Assembly: GCA_964016885.1 (NCBI GenBank) | Contig: OZ024764.1 | Coordinates: 16,554,001 to 16,618,000 of the forward strand | From: Eledone cirrhosa | Lineage: Eukaryota | Direction: 5' to 3' | Length of the DNA: 64,000 nucleotides | In this document: positions 27,818 to 57,489 of the stretch, piece by piece | Numbering within the stretch: the stretch's first letter is position 1 | Layout: every line of letters starts with the position of its first letter | The notes under the pieces: model-generated | Told to the model about the DNA's origin: nothing | What the model saw: the letters and a program-made list of their open reading frames with translations, nothing else | Databases searched by the model: none | Translations under genes and position numbers: made by a program

Positions 27818-28125
27818 GGAACGGTGTGGGCGGGGGCGGCGCCTTCGTTGCCATGACGACCACAGCGAAGAAGAAGACAGCGACGGCGGCGGCAGCTGCG
27901 AAGCGAGCATCTGTGGCGGTGGTGGAGTCGCTGAAGGTGGTGGCCTTCACGTGCGGCCATCATTTCCTCGAGCCGTCCTTCAAGAACGAGGTGCTGGTCA
28001 ATCTCAGCCATGCCCTCGCCAAGGAGAAGCGCCTCCCTCGCTCCGCTGCTCTCCTCGCCGACTGCTACAGCAAGTTGGCTACCATGCCACTTGCATGCCC
28101 TCAGTGTGTGCAACAGACTGTGTAA
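402..28125 (+). CDS. Multi-exon gene (5' end outside window): RCC1-repeat protein, probable claret/GLO-4-like Rab GEF; 22 coding exons, about 1250 aa in window
   Basis: Exons joined by hand at GT-AG sites with consistent phases: 402-579,1177-1382,2381-2477,3047-3173,4185-4389,4952-5015,6424-6570,7232-7365,10167-10302,11369-11526,12824-12983,14728-14859,15822-15998,16559-16666,17638-17766,19760-19948,20762-20863,22414-22521,23953-24053,25545-25608,25877-25983,27201-28125. Seven RCC1 repeats (e.g. [29 protein letters not shown]). The gene is secure; claret orthology is inferred from architecture only. Confidence 0.9.
860..1160. repeat. 93-bp tandem repeat, about 3.2 copies (preceded by ~30-bp degenerate array 605-835)
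   Basis: 31-aa periodicity in ORF 913-1386. Confidence 0.9.
1177..1382 (+). CDS. RCC1-protein exon ([10 protein letters not shown]...LMAAFR)
   Basis: ttgcag acceptor, ag|gtaaag donor. Confidence 0.88.
1555..1765 (-). mobile_element. RTE-type LINE 3' fragment (near-identical longer copy at 33112-33375)
   Basis: [21 protein letters not shown]...MRDRDHWR is an RTE ORF C-terminus. Confidence 0.75.
2030..2335 (+). mobile_element. SINE/RTE-tail repeat ending in (GAT)n; further copies at 62040-62255, 62490-62740, 63360-63685, 63830-64000(-)
   Basis: recurrent tgtaaa..ggttggtgttaggaagggcatccagc...cccatgc...gacgttaaacgatgatgat. Confidence 0.75.
2381..2477 (+). CDS. RCC1-protein exon ([10 protein letters not shown]...LLEVGK)
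   Basis: tttcag acceptor, aag|gtcagt donor. Confidence 0.88.
3047..3173 (+). CDS. RCC1-protein exon ([10 protein letters not shown]...CHVGH)
   Basis: ttacag acceptor, g|gtgaga donor. Confidence 0.88.
3250..3975. repeat. 48-bp minisatellite (~15 copies) inside a SINE copy
   Basis: unit cacccagtccactctgtaaagtggtcatgtaggtgtcacaacaaaagg; SINE tail resumes at ~3975. Confidence 0.95.
4185..4389 (+). CDS. RCC1-protein exon ([10 protein letters not shown]...RVRCE)
   Basis: long polypyrimidine tract + tag, ag|gtgagc donor. Confidence 0.88.
4421..4716. repeat. (GTT)n microsatellite
   Basis: direct. Confidence 0.95.
4952..5015 (+). CDS. RCC1-protein exon ([21 protein letters not shown])
   Basis: ttccag acceptor, gtaagt donor; needed to restore phase 2 to 0. 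Confidence 0.8.
5344..5393 (-). ncRNA. Minimal type I hammerhead ribozyme motif (U4C variant)
   Basis: minus: tgct CCGAAGA ctccaagc-ctag-gtttggaa GAAA caattg TC agca. Confidence 0.55.
6105..6412. repeat. 18-bp minisatellite (ctcactccatctatcact)
   Basis: direct; abuts acceptor at 6423. Confidence 0.9.
6424..6570 (+). CDS. RCC1-protein exon ([10 protein letters not shown]...SEHLT)
   Basis: ttccag acceptor, gtaagt donor. Confidence 0.85.
7232..7365 (+). CDS. RCC1-protein exon, start of propeller ([19 protein letters not shown])
   Basis: ctccag acceptor, tg|gtaagt donor; RCC1 motif. Confidence 0.9.
8306..8377 (+). ncRNA. Minimal type I hammerhead ribozyme, intact core
   Basis: atatattttat CTGATGA ggacgtactg-aggaaacatca-cagtacctcc GAAA tatata TA ataaaatatat; 11-bp stem I, palindromic stem/loop III. 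Confidence 0.75.
8456..8772. repeat. Long fold-back inverted repeat (~150-bp arms, 12-nt loop)
   Basis: ...ctcgcattcatcagt ggcgattgtcaa actgatgaatgcgag... Confidence 0.92.
10167..10302 (+). CDS. RCC1 repeat exon (LGHGDL...[13 protein letters not shown])
   Basis: gctcag acceptor, ggg|gtaaga donor; RCC1 motif. Confidence 0.92.
10540..11068 (+). mobile_element. CR1/L2-like LINE 3' fragment with ~60-bp unit amplified ~6x
   Basis: acacgtggacat...ttttcacgctcagagtt...gcatggaacaaactacc (TRGH/FF..RV..AWNKLP end) followed by tandem copies. Confidence 0.65.
11369..11526 (+). CDS. RCC1 repeat exon ([13 protein letters not shown]...[13 protein letters not shown])
   Basis: ttgtag acceptor, aa|gtaagt donor; translated by hand (frame absent from ORF track). 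Confidence 0.92.
11633..12730. repeat. 72-bp minisatellite (~14 copies) inside the CCCTT-ended MITE
   Basis: ttaa-ccctttagcatttaaacc start; 24-aa periodic ORF. Confidence 0.92.
12824..12983 (+). CDS. RCC1 repeat exon ([15 protein letters not shown]...[12 protein letters not shown])
   Basis: aaacag acceptor, cag|gtgagt donor. Confidence 0.93.
13030..14112. repeat. Same MITE with a 12-bp (tgagatattatg) array 13145-13915 plus 72-bp units
   Basis: direct; ends gttaaaggg. Confidence 0.92.
14175..14665 (+). mobile_element. Tandem tRNA-derived SINEs with Nin/Deu-type central domain (other copies 33637-33768, 53350-53735-, 55960-56310-, 59715-59910-)
   Basis: A box tggcaggatcggtag, B box gagttcaaatccc, then ttgcctttcatcct..ggggtcgataaaataaagtaccag. 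Confidence 0.75.
14728..14859 (+). CDS. RCC1 repeat exon ([17 protein letters not shown]...NFFSS)
   Basis: ctccag acceptor, tcg|gtaagt donor. Confidence 0.93.
14920..15011 (+). ncRNA. Hammerhead-like motif with expanded, branched stem II
   Basis: acatat CTGAGGA ...two internal hairpins... GAAA cacatg TA atgtgt. Confidence 0.45.
15151..15488 (+). mobile_element. tRNA-derived CORE-type SINE with RTE-like tail
   Basis: tggcttagtggttagag...gagttcaattc...ccttgagcaagacacttt...(GAT)n. Confidence 0.75.
15730..15787 (-). ncRNA. Degenerate hammerhead motif (GAAA changed to AAAA)
   Basis: minus: ttgt CTGATGA ggtcgtagc...ggttattacc AAAA tatata TA acag. Confidence 0.45.
15822..15998 (+). CDS. RCC1 repeat exon ([13 protein letters not shown]...GKIVQ)
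   Basis: acctag acceptor, cag|gtaagg donor. Confidence 0.9.
16559..16666 (+). CDS. RCC1 repeat exon ([29 protein letters not shown])
   Basis: tttcag acceptor, ata|gtaagt donor. Confidence 0.93.
16961..17022 (+). ncRNA. Type I hammerhead motif with short true stem III
   Basis: cat CTGACGA ccgatccagacg-tattttattac-cgtctgggatcca GAAA cc-ttt-gg TA atg. Confidence 0.5.
17638..17766 (+). CDS. RCC1 repeat exon (SFPTQV...[13 protein letters not shown])
   Basis: ccacag acceptor, cag|gtaagt donor. Confidence 0.93.
17823..19515. repeat. 49-bp minisatellite (~35 copies) inside a SINE copy
   Basis: unit ctcccagtccacactgtaaagtggtcatgtaggagacacagtaaaaagg; SINE tail continues to 19680. Confidence 0.95.
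19760..19948 (+). CDS. RCC1-protein exon ([10 protein letters not shown]...NGRALF)
   Basis: (TC)n + tgtag acceptor; ttt|gtaagt donor gives phase 0 for next exon. Confidence 0.82.
19992..20715. repeat. (GGT/GTG)n degenerate microsatellite
   Basis: direct. Confidence 0.95.
20762..20863 (+). CDS. RCC1-protein exon ([17 protein letters not shown]...PVLLR)
   Basis: ttccag acceptor, cgg|gtgagt donor. Confidence 0.85.
21165..21495. repeat. 15-bp minisatellite (taacctaccctatag)
   Basis: VTYP periodicity in ORF. Confidence 0.9.
21808..22390. repeat. (CAC)n degenerate microsatellite
   Basis: direct. Confidence 0.95.
22414..22521 (+). CDS. RCC1-protein exon ([10 protein letters not shown]...KQFSQ)
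   Basis: ttccag acceptor, cag|gtcagt donor. Confidence 0.85.
22625..22925 (+). mobile_element. RTE LINE 3' fragment
   Basis: [12 protein letters not shown]...GRPRKTW...DRDLWR. Confidence 0.85.
23312..23568. mobile_element. Fold-back cassette (~80-bp arms) containing a hammerhead motif at 23407-23516(+)
   Basis: agtatt CCGATGA tttgatcag...ctgatcaat GAAA caattg TT aatact. Confidence 0.55.
23953..24053 (+). CDS. RCC1-protein exon ([10 protein letters not shown]...LDFYI)
   Basis: ttacag acceptor, ag|gtgtgt donor. Confidence 0.85.
24207..25517. repeat. (CACCA/CAC)n compound microsatellite, 1.3 kb
   Basis: direct. Confidence 0.95.
25545..25608 (+). CDS. RCC1-protein exon ([21 protein letters not shown])
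   Basis: ttccag acceptor, cag|gtaggt donor. Confidence 0.83.
25877..25983 (+). CDS. RCC1-protein exon ([11 protein letters not shown]...LGLLLL)
   Basis: ctacag acceptor, ag|gtaact donor. Confidence 0.85.
26905..27170. repeat. ~24-bp degenerate array (gagtgagtggttggtcacactt-like)
   Basis: direct. Confidence 0.8.
27201..28125 (+). CDS. Terminal coding exon, ending FTCGHHF...[11 protein letters not shown]
   Basis: ttgtag acceptor, 925-nt open frame with high GC3, TAA at 28123-28125. Confidence 0.9.
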
Positions 28126-33467: not shown

Positions 33468-34516
33468 GTATATATATATATATGTATATACATATATATA
33501 TATTTATATCAGTGGTCCCCAATCATTTCTGCACCATGCCCCTCCTCAATCTAAAATATGTTTATGTCCCCCTTTATTATTAAAACAATCCGAGTCTTGT
33601 AAAAGTGTTATTATTGTAATATATATAAATATATAGTTACGTCCCTTTACGATCTGAGTTCAAATCCCGCCGAGGTTGACTTTGCCTTTCATCCTTACAT
33701 AGTCGATAAAATAAAGTACCAGTAATGCACTGGGTAATTGCTGGCATTGTGCCTGAAGTAGAAACAATTACTGTAATATAAAGTAGAAACCCTTTATTTA
33801 AACAAAGGTACGATGCAGCGATGATCAAAATGTAAACAAACTTCTCGTAGGTGCTGCCAGATACACGATAACATGTGTAGACGAAGTGTAACTGGGTCGT
33901 ATTATATCACTTTCAAATTGACCCCTATTATATTCAAATTGCCCCCTGTGGGGTGTTCACCCCACGTTGGGAATCCCCGATATATAAATATATGTGAGTG
34001 TGTGGTTATGACTGCTATTTCTAGCACGTTTACAGCTGTCCTGTAGACGCACACCAAAAACCGGAAGTGGCAGCCATTAAAAAACTTTGGCTTAAAATCA
34101 GGCAAAAGTTTTTTAACAATTTGCCAAGAAAGATAACTCTTGTCTTACTTAATCGCAAAAATCGAGACAAAAATTTTGCGTGTGTGCAGTTTGTTTGGTG
34201 TATTTGACTGCTATTTCTAGCATGTATGGACACTAGAAATAGCAGCGAAACACGGAAAACATCAGAAAGAAGGACACTCACGTATATATATATATAAATT
34301 ATGTATATATATAAATATATATATTTAATTATATATATATATATCTGTATATATATATATATGTATAATATATATATATATATATGCAAAAGTTCTATTT
34401 AAAGTTGTTGGGATACAACAAGTAAATATTTTTATAACTGATATAAAGCACTCGACAAATTTTTGGAGTAGATATACGATATTAATAAATGGAAACTATA
34501 TTTATAAAACCATATT

Positions 34517-35277: not shown

Positions 35278-35311
<34 letters not shown>

Positions 35312-36747
35312 TGTGTGTCCTTCTTTCTGCTGTTTTTCGTTTTTCGCTGCTATTTCTAAAGTGTCTATACATGCTAGAAATAGCAGCAAATGCGACCAAA
35401 CAAACTGCACACCCGCAAAATTTTTGCCTCGATTTTTGCGATTAAGTAAGACAAGAGTTATCTTTCTTGGCAAATTGTTAAAAAACTTTTGCCTGATTTT
35501 AAGCCAAAGTTTTTTAATGGCTGCCACTTCCGGCTTTTGGTGTGCGTCTACAGCACTGCAGTAAACCTGCTAGAAATAGCAGTTATAGCAACACACTCAC
35601 ATATATTTATTTATGAGGGATTCTCAACGTGGAGTGCACGCCCCACAGGGTATAATTTGAATATAATAGGGGTCAATTTGAAAGTGATATAATACGACCC
35701 AACTTCCAGTTACACTTCGTATACACATGTTATCGTGTATCTGGCAGCACCTGCGAGAAGTTTGTTTACATTTTGAAATTTGTTTTGATCATCGCTGCAT
35801 CGCAGCTTTGTTTAAATAAAGGGTTTCTACTTTATATTACAGTAATAAAAGGTCACTAAAGTAATATAGGAATGTGATTTAAAAATAAGGTAAACAGAAA
35901 TAGTTACACCGGTAACATAATTACTGTTACACCGGTAGTTCACTAACAAATCATTTCACGTTCGTCTCTAACAGGTAATATTTTAATTTGCTGTCCATGT
36001 TGGGGAGTAACTGTAGTTTGGCTTGCTAGGGGGTCATACATCTTCATACACACACACATACTATATATATATATATAATTATATGTCAGCTCCGTATTTA
36101 GGACAAATGAGGCCTGTTCTAGTTATGAGGCCCCTTTCTTGGGCTCAGTAGGATGTAGGCTTGTTAAAATAATTCTTGTGGTAAGTGTGTTGGTCTTACG
36201 ATCATATGTGTATTCGATTCCTGGACTGTGTTGTTAGTTGTTTTACTTGAGCAAAAACTTAATTTCACATAGGTGCTGTGTTAACCCTGCGATGGACTGA
36301 CATCATGTCCAGGGGGAAGTCATGTACTCTCAGTCCCTTTACGCTAGAGGAACTGGGACAGGCACCTGCTTGATAAGTCTCCAGGCTTGAGCTGACTTTA
36401 CACTTTGGTAATCCTTAGATATTCTTCTTGGTGATATATTTATTAGCTTTGACTTTAATTCATCTGTTTACACCACTAATAATTCATAGATAGAAAAACG
36501 TTTGTGGCTTTAGTACACCTTTAGGCTTTAATTTCAATTACTGACTATGTCTAACGAAGTAATAACTGGAGCGACTAAACCAGGGTTTCCTAACCTGGTG
36601 ATATCAACCACCGGTGGCCGATTTCAACTTGGTCGCTTCGGCCACAAACCCGGGTACCGCGGCCCACGAAGGAAAGGAAGATAAACAAATATCAGAGGAT
36701 TGTCCGGCTTCTTCCTCTTGGCACCTGTAGCCACCATGACGTATAAG

Positions 36748-36924: not shown

Positions 36925-38490
36925 CTTCAGCACAGCATCTCTCCTTCATCATCTCCTCTGAGCTTCAACGATCTGAGGTCAGCTCTCACTACCTCTGCCC
37001 ATATCTTTCTTGGTCTTCCTCCCACTGGGATTACTTGGCACTTCTTCACCCTGCGGTAATCCTGCATACGCATCGCATGGCCATACCAACGCAGTCTTTT
37101 CTCCCGCACACTACAGTTTATCCTTCTTATAGAGTTTCACTCTCAACTCGTCCATGCTTGGTCTTTCACGCACATTGACATTGCACATCCAATGGAGCAT
37201 GCTTGCTTCATTTCTCTCCAGCCTTCGCATATCCTCTGCAGTTGCTGTCTCACTACCATGCAACATTGTGCATCTCACACAGGCATCAAACAACCAACCT
37301 TTTGTACGCAGGGAGAAACCCTTCTTTGTCACGAGAGGAAGCAGCTCCCTAAACTTCTTCCAGCCCGTCCTTACTCTAGATACTATGGCCTCGGAACAGC
37401 CCCCTCCCATACTAATCTGATCACCTAGGTACTGAAGCTATCAAAAACTTTTATAGAACCTACTTGCATTTGAAAAATGTGTCTATCAATGCGACTTCTA
37501 CTGTCAAATTTCCCTGTACATCTACTGCATACGTAGTTTTCCCTACCTGTTAGTTTGCCTGCTATCCCACTACATCTCGTGTGTACCCAAGATCTGCATT
37601 GTGTACATTTTATAGAATGTATGCCAGTTCCTTTTCTACATATCGAACATGGCCATCAGAGTTTTGTCCTTTTTTTCTACTTATCAATACTTTTGTTTTA
37701 GCTAGGTTCACTCTCAGTCCTCTTAATTCCAACTGCTGTTTCCATAGCCAGAATTTATTCTCTATCTCCTCTACTGATTCTGCTATAAAAACCAGATTGT
37801 CAGTATAGAGAAGTTCCCATAGGCAGCTAGTCTTAAACTCCTCTGTTATGGCTTGGAGGACTATAATGAACAAGAGCGGGCTGAGGACCGAACTCTGATG
37901 GACTCCTCCTTGTATCTGGAATTCCTCACTAAACTCCATTCCTACCCTCACTTTACAGACAGCACCTCTGTACAAAGCTTGCACTGTCCTCACAAGCCAT
38001 TCCTCAACACTTAGTTTCCTTAGGGATCACCAGATGACAGATTGGGGTACACTATCAAAGGCTTTCTCTAGGTCAACAAAAGCTAAGTATAATGGCTTAT
38101 TCTTCTCTAAGAACCTCTCTTGTAGTTGTCTCACTAAGAAGAGGGCATCGGTTGTACTTTTCCCAGGCACAAAACCAAACTGCATCTCATCTAGTTTGAC
38201 TCTTTCTCTAATTAGTTGCTCTAATATCCTTTCTGCCACTTTCATAACCTGATCCATCAGTTTTATGCCTCTATAATTGATCCTCTCCAGAGCATCCCCT
38301 TTACCTTTGTAGCAATTTATGAGAATACTGCTGCACCAGTCTTTGGGTATGACACCACCATATATAGCCTGATTGATTATGCTTGCAACCAGTTTAGTAC
38401 CTACTTCTCCTCATGCCTTCAGCATCTCAGCAACTATCCCTGATGGTCCTTACCATTTTTCCTTTCTTTAATTGCCTCTTTGACCCTATA
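36925..38490 (-). mobile_element. Decayed RTE-clade LINE, reverse transcriptase region
   Basis: QFGFVPGKSTTDA...AFVDLEKAFD; GVHQSSVLSPLLF...LLYTDNLV; RLRWYGH; frameshifts and stops. Confidence 0.92.
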
Positions 38491-40007
38491 GTCTTTTGCA
38501 TCTCATCTAGTTTCATCTCGCAGCACACGATTTGGGAACCACTGCTCTAGAGATAGAAAAAGTATATTTTATGCAGGGCTTCCCTGAGACATAAAAACTA
38601 TTTCAAGTGATCAACATGGGTAGAAAGGTTGAGAAATGCTGCTCAATGTTCTTTGGTTTTTGTTCACCTTTAAATAATCATGTATGAAATATCGGGTGTG
38701 CAAGATTTCATGAAAAGGTATAACATTATTTATGCTGATCTTGCAGGGACTAGCTCCAATTGAGAGTTGTACCAATTCCCACTAAACTCGAAACTCCTGG
38801 ACAATATATACATATCTTTATAAGTTCCTGTGTATTGTGTCGCTGTATAATGAAACATAAATATATACCATGCATGTCAGTCAGATTTGAACTCACTATA
38901 TTTGGCATTTTATAGATATAATTTGTTTGTTAAAACAATTGATTAAATAATAACTAAATAAAATTAATTCTACAATCCTGGATAGGGAATGAACTTATAA
39001 CTTCATAATAGAAGCCATCTATTGGTGAATTCTTCCTCTACACTTCTCTAGAAGAAATCCGCTGTATTCAGACCTGGTTTTAAAAAGAGCCCTAGAAACA
39101 CTGTATGTCAATGCGTTGCATCTATGACTCCCTTGGGAGTTAGGGTCCATACATATAACTCTCACAGCTTGGAAGTTCTGTATGTAAGTCTTTAAAAACA
39201 TTTCATCAGTACACTCAGCTGAGGAGTTAATCCTGCGATAGACCAGTGTCCTATCCAGGGAGATTCTTATACTCTCAGACACTTAATTCCAAAGAAACTG
39301 GTGAGAAGCTGAGAACAGATTTTATATATACTATATTTAGGTTTAATCAATACATATATTGATGATTGGAATCATGGTCTTAAGATTACCTAAATCGATA
39401 CTAACTATTTCAAATACAGATCTGTCTAAGGCTATGTTACCTACATATTAATTGTTCTGGAAAGATGCATCAGTCTTCTCCTCTATGGAGCAGAAACGTG
39501 GCCCCACACAAAGTCGATTGATAGCAGAGCCCTGAGGACCATCTAAAACACCAGCCCACAGCCTTACTCTCGTTCAACACAGTAACACCTGGTAGGCTCT
39601 ACCCATGATGATGCCGGTCTAGATGTACAAAATACTCGAATATAAGGTGAGCTTCCTCCCTATCTTATGTCTAAGAAGTGGGCAAAAATGCGAACCTTAT
39701 TTACGTAGAATTTGAAGTTGGCGAAAATGGTCCTTGCTACAAAACTATTGACTCCCTATATAAGTCAACCCCTTACTACATATTCCCTGGCTTTTATTCG
39801 TGTATATCCCGTTATATATGTACAAAACACTAGCAGTTCCTTAATGGCTATATATCCCGTTATATTTATATAGAAAGAGAAACGGAAAGAAAACGAGATA
39901 ACACTCGGAATATGTCGTGTTATCTTGCTTTCTTTCCGTTTCTTTTTTTTTTAAAAAAGAAGTAAAATGTTAGCTATAAGTATGCCTATTTGACTCTGTA
40001 GAATTGC

Positions 40008-40170
40008 GGCTTGTGCGTGGCGCTGCACGTAGCGTTTCTGGCTTCGCTGTCGTACTTCGGTATGGCATGACCACTCGATCGTGTCTGAAGTTCGAATCGT
40101 TGCGGGGTCGGCCGGGACCGTTGCAGGCTGGCTTTATGCTGGCCTGCTCTCCCGCCTCGCATGAGTTTTT
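40008..40170 (+). ncRNA. Candidate 163-nt structured Pol III RNA (vault/VA-like architecture), copy 1
   Basis: TATAAG at 39975; 5' ggcttgtgcgtggcg pairs with 3' cgcctcgcatgagtt; tgtcgtac-TTCG-gtatggca; B box GTTCGAATC at 40090; gcaggctggc-tttat-gctggcctgc; T5 end. Confidence 0.6.
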
Positions 40171-40254
40171 GCCAAACAATTTGACGAGAGTTATCTCCCT
40201 TTGATTTGAGTTATTTGCCCTTTGTTGACATTGAACTACTTCCGGTTTGTGGAA

Positions 40255-40350
40255 CTCTTCTTCCTTTGTTGTCATTTCTTGAAGCTGTAACATCATTCTA
40301 TTTACTCTGGGACTATTAACGATATCTGTTTGGATTTTACGTGTAAAGAG
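40255..40350 (+). other. Candidate non-coding first exon (TCT/TOP-like start, gag|gtatgt donor)
   Basis: ACTTCCGG at 40238, ctcttcttccttt at 40255, no ATG; mirrored at 45574-45669(-). Confidence 0.4.
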
Positions 40351-42240
40351 GTATGTAAAGTTTTATTCACACTCACGGATATTATTGAGACACAAAAATA
40401 CATTTCATTATCTTGGAAATATACATTCTTGTAGTGTTTTAGTTGCCATGTCTTTTAAATTTATTCTAAACACTCTTCACAGAACTAAACCTCCTTCCGA
40501 GAAACAAAACAAATAATATATACACGCAGCTACCTCTTCTAACTAAACATACATGTTACTTTCCTCTCTATACTATACCATCGTAATTTCTACGTCGAGT
40601 TACCTCGGCATCACCACCTTTACTCCAACTCAGCATTCTCTCTTGCACACATCATATCAACTATATATTTATATTATAATCGTATCTCTATTACACCTTC
40701 TCTGTATATACTTACTTAGAAGAAAGGTATATCTCCTCATTATACACAGTATCCGGAGCTATATAAGAAACTGTAGTATATAGAATACAGACCCTCTCTC
40801 TATACATAAACACACTTCGAAGTATCGTATATATGCAGCATCTACATACACACAAGGTAAAGTTAAAACCCTCTTCTCTACTACTTTTCCCGAGGATACT
40901 TACATAAAACTGGATATTTTATCAAGGCATCTATTTATTGTATGTAGAAGACATTATATTCACTATCCTTCTCAATAGAGGAAAACAACTCCCCATACAT
41001 ACAGTTTTTTTATAGAATACACTGCCTTGTTATATAAATATTGTACACATGTGTGTATATAATACACTTCTATATATTATGTGTACACAGCAAAGAATCT
41101 ACTGTTTGTATGTAGAGACTCCTCTGTTACATCTAGAAGGCTTATATTTACTATCCTCCTCTATAATTAAAAAAAACCCATATATACAGTAATACCTTAT
41201 CTAGAGGCATATAAGAAACTGTATTTCACAGCCCTATACCCACTCTCCTAAGAAACTAAACTGTTCATGATAAAGAGGTTTCATTTCTGCCTCTAGAAAA
41301 GTATTGGTGTTAGAGCTGTGTAATCTGGATTGTTTTTATTAATACCCTCTGCTTCTTTCCAGATATGTTGAAGATCTCCGCCAGCTCAACTTAGTGTGTA
41401 GATACACACAGTCGTCTCAAGAAATAAAATAACTCCAACAACAAAATGTAGTTTATTTATTGATCTTCCTTATATATATACACAGGTAGTATCTTACATG
41501 TAGATCGTTTAACTTTCATTTATATTAAATATATAGGAATTAACAGCTGTGTATATATAACTAGTGGATTGTTAAACACATGCCTAGAGATAAAAAGGTA
41601 TTAACATGCGAGAGAATTCAATTATTATGTAATTAGTGAGAAACATCCTTCTTGAAAGAAGTGTATATATAGAATAAATTAATTAATGTGTATGTACACT
41701 ATAGAATCCCAGTAAGAAACATCCTTCTTACTGAAAGAAGTAAGTGTGGTGCTATAGAAAAGTTTCTTTGAGAATGGAAACTGTATATATAGGTATTCTA
41801 TATCTCCTGTAAGAGGTTATGTGGATATTCTATATCTCTCTCATACTTACCAGTAAGTATATAGGTATTAATAAAGAAGTTTCATGTTATAAACATTTAT
41901 AATGTGTATATATATACAGTATTCTAGTAAGTTTATTTCCTTCTGTATATAGAATAAATTTGTATTCTATATCTCTCCCAGTATGTATATAGGAATAGAA
42001 GTATGAATTCAGTTCGAATCATCTTTCATGAAAGTAATGTATATAATGCAGTATTCTAGTGAGGCCATTTCTTTCTGTATGTATACATATGCCTAGAGAT
42101 AGAAGGGTGTTAATATGTATGGATTCTATAGAAGTAAGTGTATATATACACATGGTTTTAAGGTAATAGTATCCTATAGAATAGACATACTTATCTCTAT
42201 CTAGAGAAAAAAGTTTAACTCCTTAGCTATATTTATATAA

Positions 42241-43923
42241 ACATACATATGTATGTATATATACATACATATGTATGTATATATACATACATATGTATGT
42301 ATACATACATAAGTATGTATACATATGTATGTATATATATACATACGTATGTATATACATACATACGTATGTATATACATATGTATGTACATACATACGT
42401 ATATACATACATACGTATATACATACATACGTATGTATATACATACATACGTATGTATATACATACGTATGTATATACATACATACGTATGTATATACAT
42501 ACATACTTATGTATTCATATACGTACGTATGTATGTATATACATACATATGTATGTATGTACATATATATATACGTATGTATCTATATACATATGTATGT
42601 ACATACGTACGTATGTGTATATATACATACGTATGTATGTATTTACATACGTATGTATTTACATACATATGTATGTACATACATACGTATGTACATACAT
42701 ACGTATGTATGTACATACATACGTATGTATGTACATACGTATGTATATACATACATATGTATGTATGTACATACGTATGTATTTATATACGTATGTATAT
42801 ACATACATATGTATGTATGTACATACGTATGTATTTATATACGTATGTATGTATATACATATGTATGTACATACATACATATGTATATACATACATACAT
42901 ATGTATATACATACATTTGTATGTACATACATATGTATTTATATACGTACGTATGTATGTATATACATATGTATGTATGTATATACATACATATGTATGT
43001 ACATACATACGTATGTATCTATATACATACATACGTACGTATGTGTATATATACATACATATGTATGTACGTACATACATATGTATGTATGTACATACAT
43101 ATGTATGTATGTACATACGTATGTATATACATACGTATGTATCTATATACATACATATGTATGTACATACATACTTATGTATTTATATACGTACGTATGT
43201 ATGTATATACATACGTATGTACGTACGTACATACATACGTATGTATTTATATACGTACGTATGTATGTACATACGTATGTATGTATATATATACGTATGT
43301 ATCTATATACATACGTATGTATATATATACGTATGTATCTATATACATACATATGTATGTACATACGTACGTATGTGTATATATACATACGTATGTATGT
43401 ATTTACATACATATGTATGTACATACACACATACGTATGTATGTATATACATACGTATGTATGTAGATACATACGTATGTATATACATACATATGTATGT
43501 ACGTACATACGTATGTATATACGTACGTATGTATATACATACGTATGTATTTACATACATACGTATGTATTTACATACATATGTATGTATATACATACAT
43601 ACGTACGTATGTGTATATATACATACGTATGTATATACATACGTATGTATATACATACATATGTATGTAGATACGTACGTACATACATACATACGTATGT
43701 ATATATATACATACGTACGTATGTATATATACAGACGTATGTATATATACAGAGGTATATATGTATGTATATACATACACATATGTATATACATACATAT
43801 GTATATATATACATATGTATGTATTTATACATACATATGTATGTATACATACATATGAATGTATATATACATACATAGATATGTCTGTATACATACATGC
43901 ATATGTATATATATACATACATC
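42241..43923. repeat. 1.7-kb TACA/TATG/TACG compound microsatellite
   Basis: direct; bracketed by a 27-bp direct repeat. Confidence 0.95.
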
Positions 43924-45753
43924 TTTAATTCCTTAGCTATATTTATATAATACAGTAGTCTAGAGATATAAGGGTATTAATATGTATGTAGGTTGTTGTC
44001 TTTATATCTGTGTAGTGTAACTTTTAAATTTACAATGAAGATATGCTTTATATACACTAAAGTGTTTATATGGTGAGTATCCCTGTCTAGAGGAGAACAG
44101 GGTATTGATGTATCCTTTAAAGAAAAGGGTAACTGCGTACATATGGTTCTACATACTGTACTCTACTGAACACAACTTCAATATATAATGGAGGTACTTC
44201 TTCCAATATAGAGAAGAAGGTATATTATAGACATGAAGTAAGCTTTGTGTGTATGTAAAGAACACTAAATTTCTTTGTATTTATACAGTTAGCTCTCTTG
44301 CTTCTTAGGAAGCATGTACGCGTTGTACTGTGAGATCCTTATACACAACTAGAAGAACAATAGTAGTAGTTTCCTAAGAGAGGTATGTGTAGTATCTAGC
44401 GAGAATGTATTGATCTGTATGTACAGATCAAAACCTCTTATCTTATATATGTATGATCACTTCCAGGTTTCTACATACACGTGTATAATATAAAGAGACA
44501 CACACAATGTGGGTTTAGATATATTCTATAGAATACAGTTTCTTATATACAGACATGTCTACACTGATGTTATTTACCTGTATATAGAGATGGCTTGTTT
44601 CTAATAGGTGTATCTAGGAAATAATTTATATAATATGAATCTAGTATACAGTGACAGAAGGTTTTTGTCTTCCTACAGTGTAAGAGGTGTCTAGTGTGTG
44701 TATATATACAGGGAGTAAATAATAAGGCAACAAAGGAAAATACTGGTTTATTCTTTTATTTCACAATTTATTTACCTTTCTTCTTGAGATAGGGTTGTAG
44801 TAGTCTCCAGGTCTGGTGCTCTTCCTTAGGAATATAAAATAGGTTAGTTGTGTATATATAAAGGTTTAGTTTTGTATCTAGTGAAGAACGTTTATATATG
44901 GATGATGTAGCTATCAAGCAGGTGAGGATGCTAGAAGTAGTAGTAAGGAGTGTTACGGCAGAGTAATGGAGCTACCATGCTTCGTTAGATATAAAATATA
45001 ACTGTATGGTTTAGCTTCTATATTCATATGTCTAGAGAAGGTTTAGTTTCATGTCTATTATTCCAGTATGAACAAGTTTGTATATTGCGCCTCATAAGTA
45101 TCTGTTATGATAGAAGGGAGACGGTTTATATATGAATATAGCTTCATGTGTACGTATGTCCCCAGGATTCTTCCTCTACATGGTTTAGAATAAATTTACG
45201 GCTAATACATAAATATGCCTGAAGTGTTTGTGTATTTACGTGAGAAAGTATCTTCTTGTATATAGAATATCTGTGTATTCAGGTATAAGGTTTATATACA
45301 GAAGATAAAATGTATATAGAGAGGAAGCTTGGTTATATTTCCTTACAAGTATGTATATAGTATCGAGAGAAGATTTAGTTGTAACATGTTAGAAGAGGTG
45401 TGTATATACAGATCATGGTTAGTTTTGTTTCATAATAGAGGAGGGTAACATGTATGTTTAGTTAGAAGAGGTAGCTGCGTGTATATATTTAGTTTTGTTT
45501 CTTTAAAAGACATGGCAACTTACTTTTGTGTCTCAATAATGTGTGTATACACGGCAAATAAAACTTTACATACCTCTTTACACGTAAAATCCAAACAGAT
45601 ATCGTTAATAGTCCCAGAGTAAATAGAATGATGTTACAGCTTCAAGAAATGACAACAAAGGAAGAAGAGTTCCACAAACCGGAAGTTGTTCAATGTCAAC
45701 AAAGGGCAAATAACTCCATTCAAAGGGAGATAACTCTCGTCAAATTGTTTGGC

Positions 45754-45916
45754 AAAAACTCATGCGAGGCGGGAGAGCAGGCCAGCATAAAGCCAGCCTG
45801 CAACGGTCCCGGCCGACCCCGCAACGATTCGAACTTCAGACACGATCGAGTGGTCATGCCATACCGAAGTACGACAGCGAAGCCAGAAACGCTACGTGCA
45901 GCGCCACGCACAAGCC
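45754..45916 (-). ncRNA. Candidate 163-nt structured Pol III RNA, copy 2
   Basis: exact reverse complement of 40008-40170. Confidence 0.6.
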
Positions 45917-47197
45917 GCAATTCTACAGAGTCAAAGAGGCATACTTATAGCTAACATTTTACTTCTTTTTTAAAAAAAAAAGAAACGGAAAGAAAGCGAG
46001 ATAACACGACATATTCCGAGTGTTATCTCGTTTTCTTTCCGTTTCTCTTTCTATATAAATATAACGGGATATATATATAGCCATTAAGGAACTGCTAGTG
46101 TTTTCTACATATATAACGGGATATACACGAATAGAAGCCAGGGAATATGTAGTAAGGGGTTGACTTATATAGGGAGTCAATAGTTTTGTAGCAAGGACCA
46201 TTTTCGCCAACTTCAAATTCTACGTAAATAAGGTTCGCATTTTTGCCCACTTCTCAGACATAAGATAGGGAGGAGGCTCACCTTATATTCGAGTATTTTG
46301 TATATCTATTCTTGTTAGACTAGATCGGCATCATCATGGGTAGAGCCGACCAGGTGCTACTGCGTTGAACGAGACTAAGGCTGTGATGGTCCTAAGGGCA
46401 CTGCTGTCAATCGTCTTTGTGAGGGGCCACGTTTCTGCTCCATCGATCTTAGTAATTAGTATCAATCACTAATTATCTATTTTGGTAATAAGCATCTTAA
46501 GACCATGATTTCCTTCATCGATATGTGATTAGACCAAAATTTAGTATAATATATAAAGGCTGTTCTCAGCTTATGACCAGTTTGCTTGGTGTTAAGTGTC
46601 TGAGAGTACAAGACTCTCCCTGGTTAGTACGCTGGTCTACCACAGGACTAACTCCTTGGCTGTGAGTACTGGAGCAATGTGATGAATGCAGAACATCCAA
46701 ACTGTGAGAGTTACATGTATGCATGGACCTGCAACTCCTAAGGGAGTCATACAGGCCACACATTGACATACAGTATTTCTAGGGCACTTTTTAAAACCTG
46801 GCAGACCCATCTCCTCTCCAGGTCTGAATACAGCAGATTTCTTCCAGAGAAACAGAAGAATCAACCTCAATACTAGACTGGTACTTTGTTTTATCAACCT
46901 CAAATGGATGAAAGGCAAAGTTGACTTCAGCAGGATTTTAATTCAGAGAACTGAAGGCATTCTGTTACATTCATATATACATACTTACTTTGTCTAATAA
47001 ACAAAACATCTTCTCTCTCTACACACATAACATATAAAGCTACATTTATATATACCTCTTCTAAGAAATTAAACCTACTCTAGACTTACACATAGATACA
47101 GTTATATATAAATACTTACCTTGTCAAATAAACACAACTAAATCTTCTCTAGTCAGACACACAAAGCTACATTTATATAAACATTCTTCTCTACAAA

Positions 47198-48334: not shown

Positions 48335-49655
48335 ATAGTTCACTTGAAGCATTGTGTAATGAGGTATAAACGTTTGTATATGTATAATAAAGCCAAAACA
48401 ATGCAGGTATGAACATAGAATAAAGAATGCAAATGCAAAAGATATTGACAATTAGTCTTTTACTTTAGATTTCTTTAAATGTCCTTAATTTTCGAGATAA
48501 TATCTCTTCGGAGGGAAGTAAAGCGGTTAAACCGGTTAAACCAGTGTTCTAAATAACCAAGTCGTGCTGACAGGAAATGGTATAGAGTATCTGTTCTATC
48601 TCTAACGTCAAAGAGTTAAGATTAGGTGGATAAAGAGTAGTCTCCCTTTAAAAGGGTTGTTTTTTTTGTACATGCCTGTTTAAGTGTGTGGGAGAATGTG
48701 AGTGTGTGAGAAGATATGTCTATACGTAAATGTAGGGGATAGATGATATCTCATGTTAGAACTGGTCTTTGTGTGTGTGAGAGAGAATATGTGGAGGTGT
48801 AAGCGTGTGTGTGGGGTGTGTGTAAATATGGGGCTAGAAGCTCTATCAAGTTATAAATTGGGTGTTGAGTTCTAGTCTATTATTGATTGGTGGTTGTGTT
48901 TTGTCTATAATTAGTGCTTCCTTAATTCTAAGATTGCCGAGGTTTCTATCCTAACTGTTATGGTTTTGTCGGCGTTTTTGCATTTAACTAGGTGTTTCTT
49001 AAATGAGGAAGCGTTAGTATTGAGGTGTTCTTTTATTCTTATGTGGAGTGGTCTGGTGGTGCTACCTACGTAGAAGTTGCTGCATTTGTCACACTCTAGT
49101 CTGTATACGACGTAAGCCTGGTGGCATAGGTCTGTGTCGTTGATGGGGCAGTTGGCTAGCCTGCAGCAGTTGTCATGTCTGGTGGAGTGTCTTTTGGTTA
49201 GCTGTCCGCATAGAGAAGGTCCTGAGTGGGCCAGTTGGATATCTAGTCCCTCTCTGCGGATGGCTGTTGTTGTTTCGTTACTGAAGTGTGGGAGCTTCAG
49301 GAAGCAGGTGTTAGTGCCTCGGGTGTGGTGTCCTCTGTTCTTTCTGGCACGGTTTGTGGTGGATGTTGTGTATCCGTTCAGTATGAGTACTTCCAGGAAA
49401 TGTGGTGTGTGTGTCTCGGTCTCTAGCATCGGTGCATTTGTTCCGGATACGTGTTAGTTCATTCCTTATGTATCCAAACTTAGCACCGGCTGGGAGGGCC
49501 GATCTGAAATGTACGAACAGGTCCCTGCTGGCGGCTTTTTTATAGAAGCAGGTGTGGATGTTGCCTTCCTCTGTTACCCTGAGTTGGAAGTCCAGTAGGG
49601 ATAGGGATCCACGGTCATCGGAGTGTTCCATGCTGAACTTTATACTGCATTCCAT
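48335..49655 (-). mobile_element. Penelope-like element, 5'-truncated: RT thumb + GIY-YIG endonuclease + 3' UTR
   Basis: IKFSMEH...LSLLDFQL...FYKK...VHFRSA; VVYRLECDKCSNFYVGSTTRPLHIRIKEH; frameshifted. Confidence 0.9.
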
Positions 49656-50384
49656 ATGTGTATATATATATATATACACACACACACACATACATGCAAG
49701 TATCTATGTATGTATGATTTTAAACAATAGTATCTATGCATGGACATATGTATAAGTATGTGTTGCTATGGCAGTCGATCGAGGCAGGAGTAGGTGGTGA
49801 GTGTTTAGGGGGTGGTTTACCTTGGGCTCGGTGTTGTTATTGTCCATATAGCTTGAGGAAGGCCCCGGCCCTGAGGTGTCTACATGTACCGAAGAAGTCG
49901 ACCCTGAAGTTTGTTAGGCTGCTTTCACCGCTGAGTATCTCGAGGGTCTCGTACAGACATAGTTTGTGGGCAGTAACAAAAACTACAACCATCTCCAAAC
50001 TGCTTGCTTTGACTGGAATAAAGTAGATTGGAACTCTTACTGCACTGAGCTACAACACCCAAACTGGCTCTGGAGATGTGAACACTATACTTCCAAACAT
50101 CCTGAACTCAATATGGACAGCATATGCAGCATCAGTGCCACGTAAGTACAAAAAAACATCCCAAAAGTGCAATTTGAGAGACTGTAGCAGTCCGACTTGG
50201 CAGGAAAGATGGTTGTGATGCTGAATGGGGATACAGACTGCATAGATGAGAGGTTAATAGAGAAAAAAGCACAATAGATTACCTAACCATGTCAAGCAGG
50301 TGGCACAAAAAGGAAGTGTTTGAATTTGAACAATGTATAGCAACCAACTCTGACAACAAAGTGTCCTGGAAATATGTACACTGA

Positions 50385-50935
50385 AATGCAGTTCTCAGGG
50401 AGATTCAGCACAACATGTAAGTGACTCAATATTCCACAGACGAGTTCCTCCAATGCAGTTCTCAGGGAGATTCAGCACAACATGTAAGTGACTCAATATT
50501 CCACAGACGAGCTCCTCCAATACAGTTCTCAGGGAGATTCAGCACAACATGTAAGTGACTCAATATTCCACAGACGAGTTCCTCCAATACAGTTCTCAGG
50601 GAGATTCAGCACAACATGTAAGTGACTCAATATTCCACAGACGAGCTCCTCCAATAGTTCTCAGGGAGATTCAGCACAACATCTAGGTGACTCAATATTC
50701 CACAGACGAGTTCCTCCAATGCAGTTCTCAGGGAGATTCAGCACAAATGTAAGTGACTCAATATTCCAGACGAGCTCCTCCAATACAGTTCTCAGGGAGA
50801 TTCAGCACAACATCTAGGTCACTCAATATTCCACAGACGAGTTCCTCCAATACAGTTCTCAGGGAGATTCAGCACAACATGTGTCTGAGCATTCCAAAGA
50901 CGAGCTCCTCCAATACAGTTCTCAGGGAGATTCAT
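50385..50935. repeat. 67-bp minisatellite (~8 copies)
   Basis: direct. Confidence 0.92.
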
Positions 50936-52744: not shown

Positions 52745-54079
52745 ATTTGCCCAGCAGCTTGTCATTGTTGCTGCTGTCATTGTAGTTGTTTCTTTCTAAT
52801 GTTGTTGTTGTTGTTGTGTCCCTCTGCCTCTATGCCTAATTGAATCTGAGCCTGGGATCCACAGAAAAGTATCCCAACATTGTTTCTAAACCAAGTCAAT
52901 CTATATACAAGTATTGTACACACACATACATACATACATACACACACAGATGTACATACATACATACATATGTACATACATACATACATACGTACGTACA
53001 TACACACAGGTACCCATATATACTTACACACACACAAACATTCACGGACGCACGCACACATGTGCGTGCACATTCACATATGTTTGCACACAAACACATA
53101 CACCTTTCATGTATACACCTACACACACACACACACACACACCCACTCAAACACAAACACCCTCATATACAATCAAGCTCACATAATCACACGCATTCAC
53201 ACACACAGAGACAGCTAGTCATTTACACACACACACACACATTTATATACACAAGCACGCAATAGTGTAGGCCTGAGTTCTGTACACTGGTCTCATTGAA
53301 GCTCAGCTCTTCCTAACCTGCAAAATGGAAGAAAAAACAACATTAAAAACTGTTTCCACTATAGGCACAAGGCCAGCAATTTGGGGGGAGGGAAAGTCAA
53401 TTAAATGGACGCCAGTGTATTACTGGTACTTTATTTTATCGACCCTGTTAGGATGAAAAGCAAATCTAACCTCATTGGGATTTGAATTTTGACTGTAAAG
53501 GACCATATTTCTATGCTGCGACTCCCTACCGATCACTGCCAGCGTAAAGGGCCGTAACTCTATGCTGCGAAGCATGGTGTCCGACCCCCTACCGATCACT
53601 GCCAGCGCAAAGGGCCGTAACTCTATGCTGCGAAGCATGGTGTCCGACCCCCTACCGATCACTGCCAGCGCAAAGGGCCGTAACTCTATGCTGCGAAGCA
53701 TGGTGTCCGACTCTCTACTGATTCTGCCAATACACCACACACAAGAATAGGAAAATGTTAACCCTTTTGTTACGAGATTTCTAATGAAAGATACTATATT
53801 TCAATTAATTAATTAATTAAGAATTTGGAGGGATTTACTCAAATTATTATTTCATTACTAAGACATTAACTTAACATATGGTTCTTATATGAAGTTATTT
53901 TGGAATATTTAATTTAAATAAGAACCCTTTAAAATGAGTGGTTTTGTAACATAGAACTAGAGATGGTGTCTAACTATCATTTATTTTAATTCTTTCATTT
54001 GTATTATCGTAAATACAACAAATATTTAAAAATATAAAATATTGAAATTTTCATGCATTAACAACAACAACAACAACAA

Positions 54080-54560
54080 AAATGAAGATAGAGATGTAAA
54101 TATATCTCTCAAACAAATGGAAAAATTATCCAAATCTAAAGATCTAGAGATAGAAATAACCCAAATGTGGATGATGAAAACAGAAACAATATTTATAATA
54201 ATAATGAGTGCTCTGGGAATAATAAGGAAAACAAATCATGCAGACAAATACATGTCCAGACCCCAAGACTTACAAATATATATAACATATAGAATATAGC
54301 ACTATTAGGTACTGTATATATATTATATAGAGTACCACAAGACTTACATATATATAACATATAGAATATAGCACTATTAGGTACTGTATATATATTATAT
54401 AGAGTATCACAAGACTTACATATATATAACATATAGAATATAGCACTATTAGGTACTGTATATATATTATATAGAGTACCACAAGACTTACATATATATA
54501 ACATATAGAATATAGCACTACTAGGTACTAAACACATATTTTGTAGAGTATTTTCAATAC
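54080..54560 (+). mobile_element. R4/Dong-like LINE 3' end with a 72-bp unit amplified ~4x
   Basis: KLSKSKDLEIEITQMW...IIMSALGII; atagcactactaggtact (IALLGT). Confidence 0.65.
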
Positions 54561-54829: not shown

Positions 54830-55745
54830 TCTCTGAACTGAGAGATCACAGCTCTGATACTACAGACATGTGGTTAGAATGTCTCTGGAAGGAATCTCTG
54901 GATTGAGAGATCACCGCTCTGATACTACAGACATGTGGTTAGAATGTCTGAGGAAAGAATCTCTGGATTGAGAGATCACAGCTCTGATACTACAGACATG
55001 GGGTTAGAATGTCTCAGGAAAGAATCTCTGAATTGAGAGATCACAGCTCTGATACTACAGACATGTGGTTAGAATGTCTCAGGAAAGAATCTCTGAATTG
55101 AGAGATCACAGCTCTGATACTAGACATGTGGTTAGAATGTCTCAGGAAAGAATCTCTGAATTGAGAGATCACAGCTCTGATACTACAGGCATGTGGTTAG
55201 AATGTCTCAGGTAAGAATCTCTGGATTGAGAGATCACAGCTCTGATACTACAGACATGTGGTTAGAATGTCTGAGGAAAGAATCTCTGGATTGAGAGATC
55301 ACAGCTCTGATACTACAGACATGTGGTTAGAATGTCTCAGGAAAGAATCTCTGAATTGAGAGACCACAGCTCTGATACTACAGACATGTGGTTAGAATGT
55401 CTGAGGAAAGAATCTCTGGATTGAGAGACCACAGCTCTGATACTACAGACATGTGGTTAGAATGTCTCAGGAAAGAATCTGTGGATTGAGATATCACAGC
55501 TCTGATACTACAGACATGTGGTTAGAATGTCTCAGGAAAGAATCTCTGGATTGAGAGATCACAGCTCTGATACTACAGACATGTGGTTAGAATGTCTAAG
55601 GAAAGAATCTCTGAACTGAGAGATCACAGCTCTGATACTACAGACATGTGGTTAGAATGTCTCAGGAAAGTATCTCTGGATTGAGAGATCACAGCTCTGA
55701 TACTACAGACATGTGGTTAGAATGTCTCAGGAAAGAATCTCTGAA
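54830..55745. repeat. 65-bp minisatellite (~14 copies)
   Basis: direct. Confidence 0.95.
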
Positions 55746-56592: not shown

Positions 56593-57300
56593 TATTTCTT
56601 TATTAGCCACAAGGGCGCACAAGAAAAGGGGACAAAACAAAGACATGCCGGGGATTTTACATACAGTCGTGTAAAAAAATATAAAACAAACAATTATAAC
56701 AGTCAAAATCCCCAATAGGGGGGGAAGCCCCACAAATGGGTTGTTTAATACCCCGTAGATAGAAGAACAACCCTCAACTCCAGGAGCGTGTTGTGCAAGT
56801 GCTCCTTTCTTCCTTTTGTTCTCTTCTTTAACCTACAGGCTTATAAACAGAGAAGGTCCAATCACTTGGGCCATTCTCGCTACATTCACCCACCTTTCAA
56901 TAAATTTACTGGGGTGCAGTGCCTCTCTTTCTATTCTGATTTTCCTTCTAAAGTGGTACCTAAAGAAGGGAATGAGTTGTTGTCCGGAGAGAAAGGTATC
57001 TGTCCTCAGTCCTCTCAATCTCGTCCACCATATAACCTCTTTCACCATAGCCACGATACAGAGGAAAACCGCCTCTCCTTCATTTTTAACAGAAGGTGGC
57101 GGTTTGATCCTTACTATGGACTCGGCAGTCAACTGGATTTGTCCCACACGCGACAGCAGTTGTTCTGTGTAGTTCCACAGGTCGGTTACGCCCGGGCAGT
57201 GTACAATTGCGTGCAGGACGGTTTCAATGTCCTGCACGCATCTTGGACACGTCCTCTTGGAAGGATCCCTGCCTGTAGATCTTGTCACAAACTGGTAGAG
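56593..57300 (-). mobile_element. L1/Tx1-like LINE 3' fragment embedded in (GATA)n
   Basis: CPRCVQDIETVLHAIVHC...IWWTR zf-RVT motif; 3' end ...gtggctAATAAAgaaat. Confidence 0.8.
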
Positions 57301-57489
57301 CTTGATAGATATATGGATAGATAGATGGATAGATGGATAGAGAGATAGAGAGATAGACAGACAGATAGATAGATAGATAGATAGATAGAGAGAGGGTGAG
57401 AGACTCCTTTCATCTACCCATATCCCACACACAACACAAAAGATGTAACAAGAAAAAAATAGTAAAATTAATAATTGAAAAAACAGACA

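Follow-up and report, generated by a model that had tools for sequence, protein, structure and literature searches.

A predicted family of structured Pol III RNA genes carried in convergent pairs on dispersed, duplicated DNA of Eledone cirrhosa

What is encoded by a short GC-rich island in otherwise AT-rich DNA of Eledone cirrhosa? In the stretch analyzed here (64,000 nucleotides of contig OZ024764.1, positions 16,554,001 to 16,618,000, hereafter the window), the GC content is 56.5% in 40000-40199 versus 31% and 33.5% in the adjacent bins. A sequence-only reading had proposed that the island is an unrecognised Pol III-type RNA gene, present twice, and either a molluscan vault RNA or the representative of a new Pol III RNA class. 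The promoter and terminator elements on which it drew were all recovered at the expected places. We place the predicted gene (type A, copy 1) at 40008..40170 on the forward strand from sequence, fold and family comparison, with a start possibly at the G at 40006, where a 5' motif common to the whole family begins. A TATA-like box and its spacer occupy 39975..40007 (+), with TATAAG at 39975-39980, 33 nt ahead of 40008; this TATA-to-start segment is common to all subfamilies and its conservation equals that of the gene body (0.85 parsimony steps per site). An A-box-like element (TGGCG..) at 40018..40029 (+) keeps its position in 13 subfamily representatives, the B box GTTCGAATC follows at 40090..40098 (+), 72 nt past the A box (44 nt in the short types I and K, as in tRNA), and a T5 terminator lies at 40166..40170 (+). 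Two direct copies of a GAGTTATCTCCC-type motif are found downstream (40180..40219, +), a variant of which follows the terminator in most subfamilies, and a 45-nt inverted repeat upstream, with arms 12 nt apart (39860..39961), contains the inverted partner of this motif. A sigma-70 promoter scan stayed at chance level and is irrelevant here.

The 163-nt RNA has a folding energy of -75.2 kcal/mol (z -3.27), matched by 1 of 200 shuffled sequences, and its predicted fold is a rod made of a terminal stem, a long apical arm and a 3' arm. The terminal stem (40009..40166, +) pairs 40009-40017 with 40158-40166 and 40019-40021 with 40154-40156, with pair probabilities of 0.77-1.0, and leads into the T5 run as originally described. 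The apical arm (40028..40104, +), in which 40028-40046 pairs with 40086-40104, encloses the cUUCGg hairpin (40048-40067) and a small hairpin, and carries an insertion of ~27 nt relative to the short types; the 3' arm (40114..40153, +) includes the 10-bp hairpin at 40123-40147. Both of the named hairpins had been noted in the sequence-only reading. A further one, ggcgctg-cacg-tagcgtt, was not confirmed: it is missing from both the MFE and the centroid structure of the window RNA, and it shares GGCG with the terminal stem as first drawn, so that the two cannot both form. In addition, 6 of the 14 distinct alignment rows disrupt a C-G pair of this hairpin, and 500 of 500 shuffles do equally well. 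The choice of strand was sound: for all 13 family representatives the named strand gave a better fold than the reverse complement.

The second copy in the window (type A, copy 2; 45754..45916, reverse strand) is identical to the first over 165 nt and convergent with it, and its TATA-like box and spacer were assigned from sequence at 45917..45949 (-). The flanks of the two copies had been thought to differ. Self-comparison gave another picture, in that 39044-40400 matches 46851-45521 at 85% and the module from -150 to +340 is 99% identical between the copies. The two window copies are the arms of a convergent inverted duplication, the left arm at 39044..40400 (+) and the right arm at 45521..46851 (-), with a TATG-type microsatellite in the spacer (42228..43922, from a repeat scan).

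Two copies also proved far too low a count. A 20-mer of the window RNA has 87 exact copies in the genome (44 on the + and 43 on the - strand), 80 of which form 40 convergent pairs, 2.9-14.1 kb apart, on chromosomes C8, C22, C23 and C25, and a 26-mer at up to 1 mismatch gave 121 window-type matches. The promoter motif has 131 matches and extends to C12-C15 and C21, the members there being longer types G and H (183-193 nt) and shorter types I and K (150-156 nt). An I/K motif added 64 further genome matches, of which 30 were examined as loci (3 of them rearranged) and 14 more as 10-kb stretches, 12 of the latter containing the gene or gene motif. Since the window-type (121) and I/K (64) sets are disjoint, the resulting ~185 matches are a floor, to which G and H members are additional; a G/H motif search returned 88 matches that overlap the other sets. 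There are about ten subfamilies in this one genome, with predicted RNAs of 150-195 nt, and all types have in common the TATA-to-start segment, a TTATCTCCC-type motif downstream and the T run. The B box departs from the canonical form (GATCG) in types B and H and in some of type F. At several older loci the two facing genes are of different RNA types (I or K opposite H, G opposite G2), and at other older loci no partner lies inside the fetched stretch. Among the matches listed, each subfamily is confined to a few chromosomes, and no family member was found on C1-C5 among those listed in the 26-mer and promoter-motif searches, placing the family on the smaller chromosomes. Profile searches connect the types in both directions. 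An HMM built from window-type copies matches G and H at 1e-12 to 1e-28, and a model built from I and K alone matches G types at 4e-9 and 6.5e-7 and recovers both window copies end to end as its top matches at an E value of 8e-4, with the caveat that a palindromic microsatellite scores up to 23 bits against this model versus 18 for the window copies.

We then asked how the gene has evolved relative to the DNA duplicated along with it. One hundred window-type copies were aligned, 73 of which had alignable flanks (the 27 dropped include all 18 of type B), and in these 73 the gene had changed at 0.77 parsimony steps per site versus 1.72 in the flanks. The values were 0.80 and 1.67 without the query-motif columns, and 0.73 and 1.32 for the 43 copies not picked as top matches. 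Types A and B are 90% identical over the first 100 nt versus 48-80% in the flanks. Compared between subfamilies, the gene shows roughly twofold stronger conservation than the flanks duplicated with it. In 14 I/K sequences 97.4% of cells pair, with 5 two-sided changes versus 1.2 in shuffled alignments (0 of 500), a test that is uncorrected for relatedness and uses a structure predicted from the same alignment, and among 8 long-type representatives 47 of 48 cells are paired in the helix that connects the A-box side with the B-box side. Covariation within the window's own A/B/D set comprised 3 pairs and was not above shuffles (199 of 500). The X5 and X6 sequence runs held only near-identical variants already in the genome, hence no cross-species covariation. 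A 151-nt X5 contig that covers the gene body only was considered as a transcript and rejected, X5 pieces being commonly 151 nt and shallow.

The promoter, terminator and fold persist across diverged subfamilies with compensatory changes, and no Rfam family matches the RNA; both observations support the earlier proposal of a new Pol III RNA class. Judged by its sequences, the family is very probably a structured Pol III gene family. Individual copies behave less uniformly. Among young members, neither type I (21 copies, p 0.25) nor type K (10 copies, p 0.63) shows constraint on individual copies, and type B cores vary faster than their flanks (0.23 versus 0.13, p 0.02). Types A, D and E have fewer singletons in the gene than in the flanks (0.20-0.24 versus 0.35, p 0.007-0.085), a hint of some selection on individual copies. 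Where rare variants fall on paired sites, they disrupt the pair about as often as they preserve it (21 versus 17 cases), and many copies carry deletions. Rare changes in the gene copies show no excess of A>G (3 of 54) and therefore give no indication that copies passed through an edited RNA. The combination of strong selection on long branches and later drift points to selection on founder cassettes; drift in young copies would be expected just as much of a host gene family rich in pseudogenes.

Is the RNA a vault RNA? The Rfam Vault model (RF00006) has no match at E<=10 on the window copy, nor on type I, and the vault reading cannot be sustained in its original form. The same model finds 16 matches across the genome, 14 of them above the 34-bit cut-off (best 43.3). 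These 14 predicted vault RNA genes constitute a 67-kb tandem cluster at C3:221,183,987-221,251,257 (3 loci rechecked); they are 87-93 nt long, of at least two sequence types, and have a degenerate B box. An MVP gene is present on C24. A model built from 8 of the C3 vault genes does not have the 163-nt RNA among its 66 matches at E<=10, and the RNA-family HMM does not match the C3 vault genes. That the family might be a highly diverged vault RNA paralogue loading into vault particles is suggested by the terminal stem and A and B boxes, by the MVP gene, and by a ~27-nt stretch that type B has in common with a single type of vault gene (20-30 of 2000 shuffles). However, many Pol III RNAs have internal A and B boxes and paired ends, and the shared stretch sits in the insertion that the short types lack. 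Neither type A nor type B scores with the two remaining vault types, for which H and J reach 4-14 of 500 shuffles in three of four cells, so that at sequence level the likeness appears weak and the signal inconsistent. With a canonical cluster elsewhere in the genome and the two gene sets invisible to each other's models, we regard a vault paralogue as highly improbable. Validated vault RNAs are known from vertebrates, sea urchin and a trypanosome, with predictions in deuterostomes (PMC7058938, PMC10491885), and our literature searches returned no report of a molluscan vault RNA. The C3 cluster together with MVP would extend vault RNAs to a protostome, none being listed in these two reviews.

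Other known classes gave no better account of the RNA. Rfam at gathering level over the window contains no family that matches it, and at E<=10 the element draws 7 weak unrelated matches only. The Rfam models of Y RNA/sbRNA, SRP, 7SK, snRNA and RNase P/MRP do not match the family RNA, nor do those of VA RNA and EBER. For Y RNA, the model RF00019 has no match in the entire genome at E<=1 (51 candidates scored) and may be blind here. An ARAGORN search detected no cloverleaf in the family RNA, with inconsistent calls under relaxed settings, RF00005 has no match, and the family HMM matches no tRNA. The A and B boxes of all five I/K representatives are spaced 44 nt apart, the distance also seen in the genome's tRNA-Trp, and those of 8 long types 70-72 nt apart. 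Type A resembles tRNA-Trp at 3-36 of 2000 shuffles, although a query-derived motif had served to select this tRNA; the likeness fails for B and reaches 4-283 of 500 shuffles in six other types, against a tRNA panel with few isotypes. The sequence likeness to tRNA-Trp is no more than suggestive. A search for a tRNA-Arg(UCG) gene motif gave 0 matches. Elsewhere in the genome we observed a densely packed tRNA-Thr cluster at C1:243.65-243.68 Mb (L106, L108) and, at dispersed sites (L107, L109-L117), a tRNA-like repeat whose body is constant while its anticodon varies; the latter is probably a SINE family of tRNA origin that was scored as tRNA.

The sequence-only reading had allowed that a high genomic copy number would mark the element as the head of a SINE. 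The copy number is indeed high, but the copies share their promoter and kilobases of flank and do not match the abundant SINE of this genome, and a SINE-head origin was rejected on these grounds; the same two features indicate that the family spread as DNA. A functionless remnant, namely a dead SINE or tRNA pseudogene head in a duplicated segment, could explain the tRNA box spacing of I and K, the many deletion-bearing copies and the drift in young copies. It does not account for the approximately twofold constraint relative to the flanks, the compensatory changes, the conserved upstream promoter, or the absence of a SINE match and of a poly-A tail, and we consider it very unlikely.

The DNA that carries the genes is a mosaic. 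In the window, the segment 33767..48313 is shared piecewise with other loci by locus comparison, and those of its edges that were checked (36.2, 38.5 and 48.3 kb) are rearrangement breakpoints, not element ends. Type A cassettes measure 6-15 kb and type K cassettes 15-20 kb or more; they hold micro- or minisatellites and lie in unrelated neighbourhoods. Element ends and a target-site duplication were sought in A and K loci and not found, nor was an autonomous partner for the cassette. By eye, 676 ORFs of cassette regions contain no shared intact coding gene, the shared frames being LINE pieces, Helitron pieces and chance frames over the module, and no viral gene was recognised among ORFs of the fetched DNA (by eye, with 8 ORFs compared with Pfam, in stretches that do not reach the element ends). 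In 11 of 27 pairs, neither arm has a closer match among the other copies than its own partner, an effect clearest where the locus is isolated (99.8% versus 87.6%; 98.8% versus 80.8%), which suggests that arms are homogenised or were made together. From the dispersal of cassettes to unrelated sites and the limitation of subfamilies to certain chromosomes, the cassette may be self-spreading.

Several neighbouring features were recorded along the way. The non-coding piece at window 38489-39023 elsewhere adjoins Helitron Rep/helicase pieces, and internally deleted pieces of this kind, some in inverted copies, lie by cassettes at L075:276-1562, L077, L078, L079:7826-8528, L080, L081 and L056. A ~540-bp repeat (window 33767-34281 and 35311-35851) forms inverted pairs around a TA microsatellite and is often close to RNA cassettes; an exact 29-mer of it has 412 copies, and the 100 matches listed of these 412 are all on C17-C20, many in convergent pairs. 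Type K genes (L190:1080-1560) are flanked by repeated ATGCAAAT motifs in both orientations, which we take to be octamer motifs, and ~330 nt upstream of type I genes (L162-L186) there is a conserved GAGGTAAGT, presumably splice-donor-like, a sequence feature that may indicate a Pol II exon within the cassette. Window 37610-38410 (-), 48911-49703 (-) and 56833-57489 (-) contain broken pieces of a LINE reverse transcriptase, a Penelope-type GIY-YIG domain and zf-RVT, the LINE piece being co-duplicated with the cassette at other loci. The window further contains young minisatellite arrays (17814-19523, 50385-50934, 53519-53729, 54260-54550 and 54830-55743) with periods of 67, 63, 72, 65 and one of about 49/98, as well as a 315-aa stop-to-stop frame at 27178-28125 (+) that ends in a Cys/His motif, has no Pfam match and is probably the last exon of a host gene.

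Some of this organization invites the idea that the function resides in the DNA and that the RNA is incidental, the boxes recruiting TFIIIC as an insulator or the hairpins acting in the single-stranded DNA of rolling-circle (Helentron/HINE-like) movement. The upstream inverted repeat with its 12-nt gap and the inverted partner past the gene recall the subTIR/IR layout of HINEs (PMC7492417), cassettes contain micro- and minisatellites, and broken Helitron Rep/helicase pieces (Pif1_2B) adjoin 4 of the 4 extended C25 cassettes first examined and one C23 locus. Such pieces are absent, however, from the window, from a 110-kb C23 region and from the mapped C8, C22 and other C23 regions, and homology continues beyond the supposed subTIRs on both sides. 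Moreover, the pairing uses G-U on one strand and exchanges G-U with A-U, and the terminator is kept at the end of the stem. A purely DNA-level role is therefore quite improbable.

If the RNA itself is what matters, whom does it serve? It may be a lineage-specific regulatory RNA of the host, of the snaR, 4.5SH or BC1 kind, acting in translation or RNA-processing control, in which case the surrounding DNA would be a passive segmental duplication and a few working sources would coexist with pseudogenes under birth-and-death evolution. The constraint and covariation data apply to such an RNA equally, 48 of 100 copies retain the TATA box, a canonical B box, the terminator and the full A-type length, and singletons are fewer in A cores. 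The duplicons, mosaic, rearranged and lacking defined ends, are reminiscent of the core duplicon of snaR (PMC3045588), and 4.5SH, as described, has 700-800 genes in 4-5 kb units (PMC3440375). A host-serving RNA leaves unexplained, however, why convergent pairs occur at dispersed, unrelated sites, why subfamilies burst on few chromosomes, and why per-copy constraint is absent in young I and K; we regard it as possible, if doubtful.

We tentatively favour a snaR/4.5S-like Pol III RNA on a spreading cassette that would act as a VA-like decoy for dsRNA-binding proteins and thereby serve the cassette. The preference over a host-serving RNA is due to the convergent pairing, the dispersal and the chromosome-limited bursts, all of which need explaining, and the data do not separate these two readings cleanly. 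VA RNAs combine a comparable layout with a decoy role, and cephalopods are noted for very heavy RNA editing. In the decoy scheme, TFIIIC and TFIIIB would read the A and B boxes and the TATA box, and Pol III would stop at the T run. The ancestor would have had the tRNA box spacing seen in types I and K, the lineage of the window later gaining ~27 nt in the apical loop. The terminal stem would stabilise the RNA, as terminal complementarity does for 4.5SI RNA (PMC3440375), and the long imperfect arms would be ligands for proteins such as ADAR, Dicer and ILF3/NF90; snaR binds NF90 and was spread by segmental duplication (PMC3045588). The cassette, as an inverted repeat, would itself be able to give dsRNA, and founders with a working RNA pair would spread better, their copies then decaying. 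In its most specific version, the cassette would be a selfish non-coding element with its own tRNA-evolved Pol III decoy pair, a cellular counterpart of VA I/II that titrates ADAR, Dicer or a related dsRNA sensor and so lets an inverted-repeat element spread. This version is unlikely.

New animal Pol III RNA classes are rare, and the lineage-specific ones cited here (snaR, 4.5S, BC1) are mammalian. A decoy function would connect a mobile element with the regulation of dsRNA sensing and of RNA editing, and a host-serving function would mean an unannotated multicopy RNA in cephalopod genomes. The roughly ten subfamilies form a natural series that leads from short members with tRNA spacing to extended ones, and they offer compensatory changes as well as ready-made probes. 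Our literature searches found no paper on the family RNA, and Rfam is without a match; the cassette may be listed in Repbase or Dfam as an unknown repeat.

Among known systems, adenovirus VA RNA I/II and the EBV EBERs are ~160 nt long, with a terminal stem, a long box-holding apical arm, a 3' domain and two related genes per element. The family is alike in size, stem, apical arm, 3' domain and gene pair, but has no Rfam match, and its genes are convergent and kilobases apart. Vault RNAs share A and B boxes, upstream elements and paired 5' and 3' ends (RF00006; PMC7058938, PMC10491885), whereas the family RNA fails the model, is longer and has a branched 3' arm, the genome's vault genes being the 87-93-nt genes on C3. 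BC1 RNA is likewise about twice the length of a tRNA, with a tRNA-type 5' part refolded from a cloverleaf into a rod, but is described as a single retroposed gene 80% like tRNA-Ala (PMC4233971), in contrast to the weak tRNA likeness and multiple copies found here. The small-RNA-bearing LTR elements Helenus and Ajax (PMC10886601) are non-autonomous mobile DNA with Pol III-gene-like sequence, and the Cg_HINE Helentrons (PMC7492417) have subterminal inverted motifs and internal tandem repeats. According to these sources, both have defined ends (direct LTRs with a 5-bp TSD, or a subTIR with a palindrome). HINE-shaped motifs do flank the family gene, but the homology continues beyond these motifs and the search for ends was negative. 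The repeats of the family are inverted, and its RNA has a terminator of its own and folds unlike a tRNA. The closest likeness is to snaR of great apes and to 4.5SH and 4.5SI of rodents. snaR is a lineage-restricted structured Pol III family with internal boxes that diversified by indels and was segmentally duplicated in a rearranging core duplicon; it is reported to be Alu-derived and ~117 nt long, with ~30 genes mostly in tandem (PMC3045588), compared with 150-195 nt and ~185 or more matches in dispersed convergent pairs, and a relation in sequence between the two is not to be expected. The 4.5SH and 4.5SI genes are Pol III A/B-box genes helped by their 5' flank, 4.5SH existing in hundreds of copies in kilobase-size units and 4.5SI having a terminal stem; they are described as SINE-derived (B1, B2), ~100 nt and tandem (PMC3440375), whereas the genes here are in inverted pairs, often of two different RNAs, and match no SINE. 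By kind, not by family, the RNA belongs with snaR and the 4.5S RNAs, as it is a multicopy Pol III-type gene spread by DNA duplication with a conserved structure. A repeat-borne, lineage-specific Pol III RNA is as a kind already known from mammals; new here are the RNA family itself, the two-gene convergent cassette and the evidence for founder-level selection.
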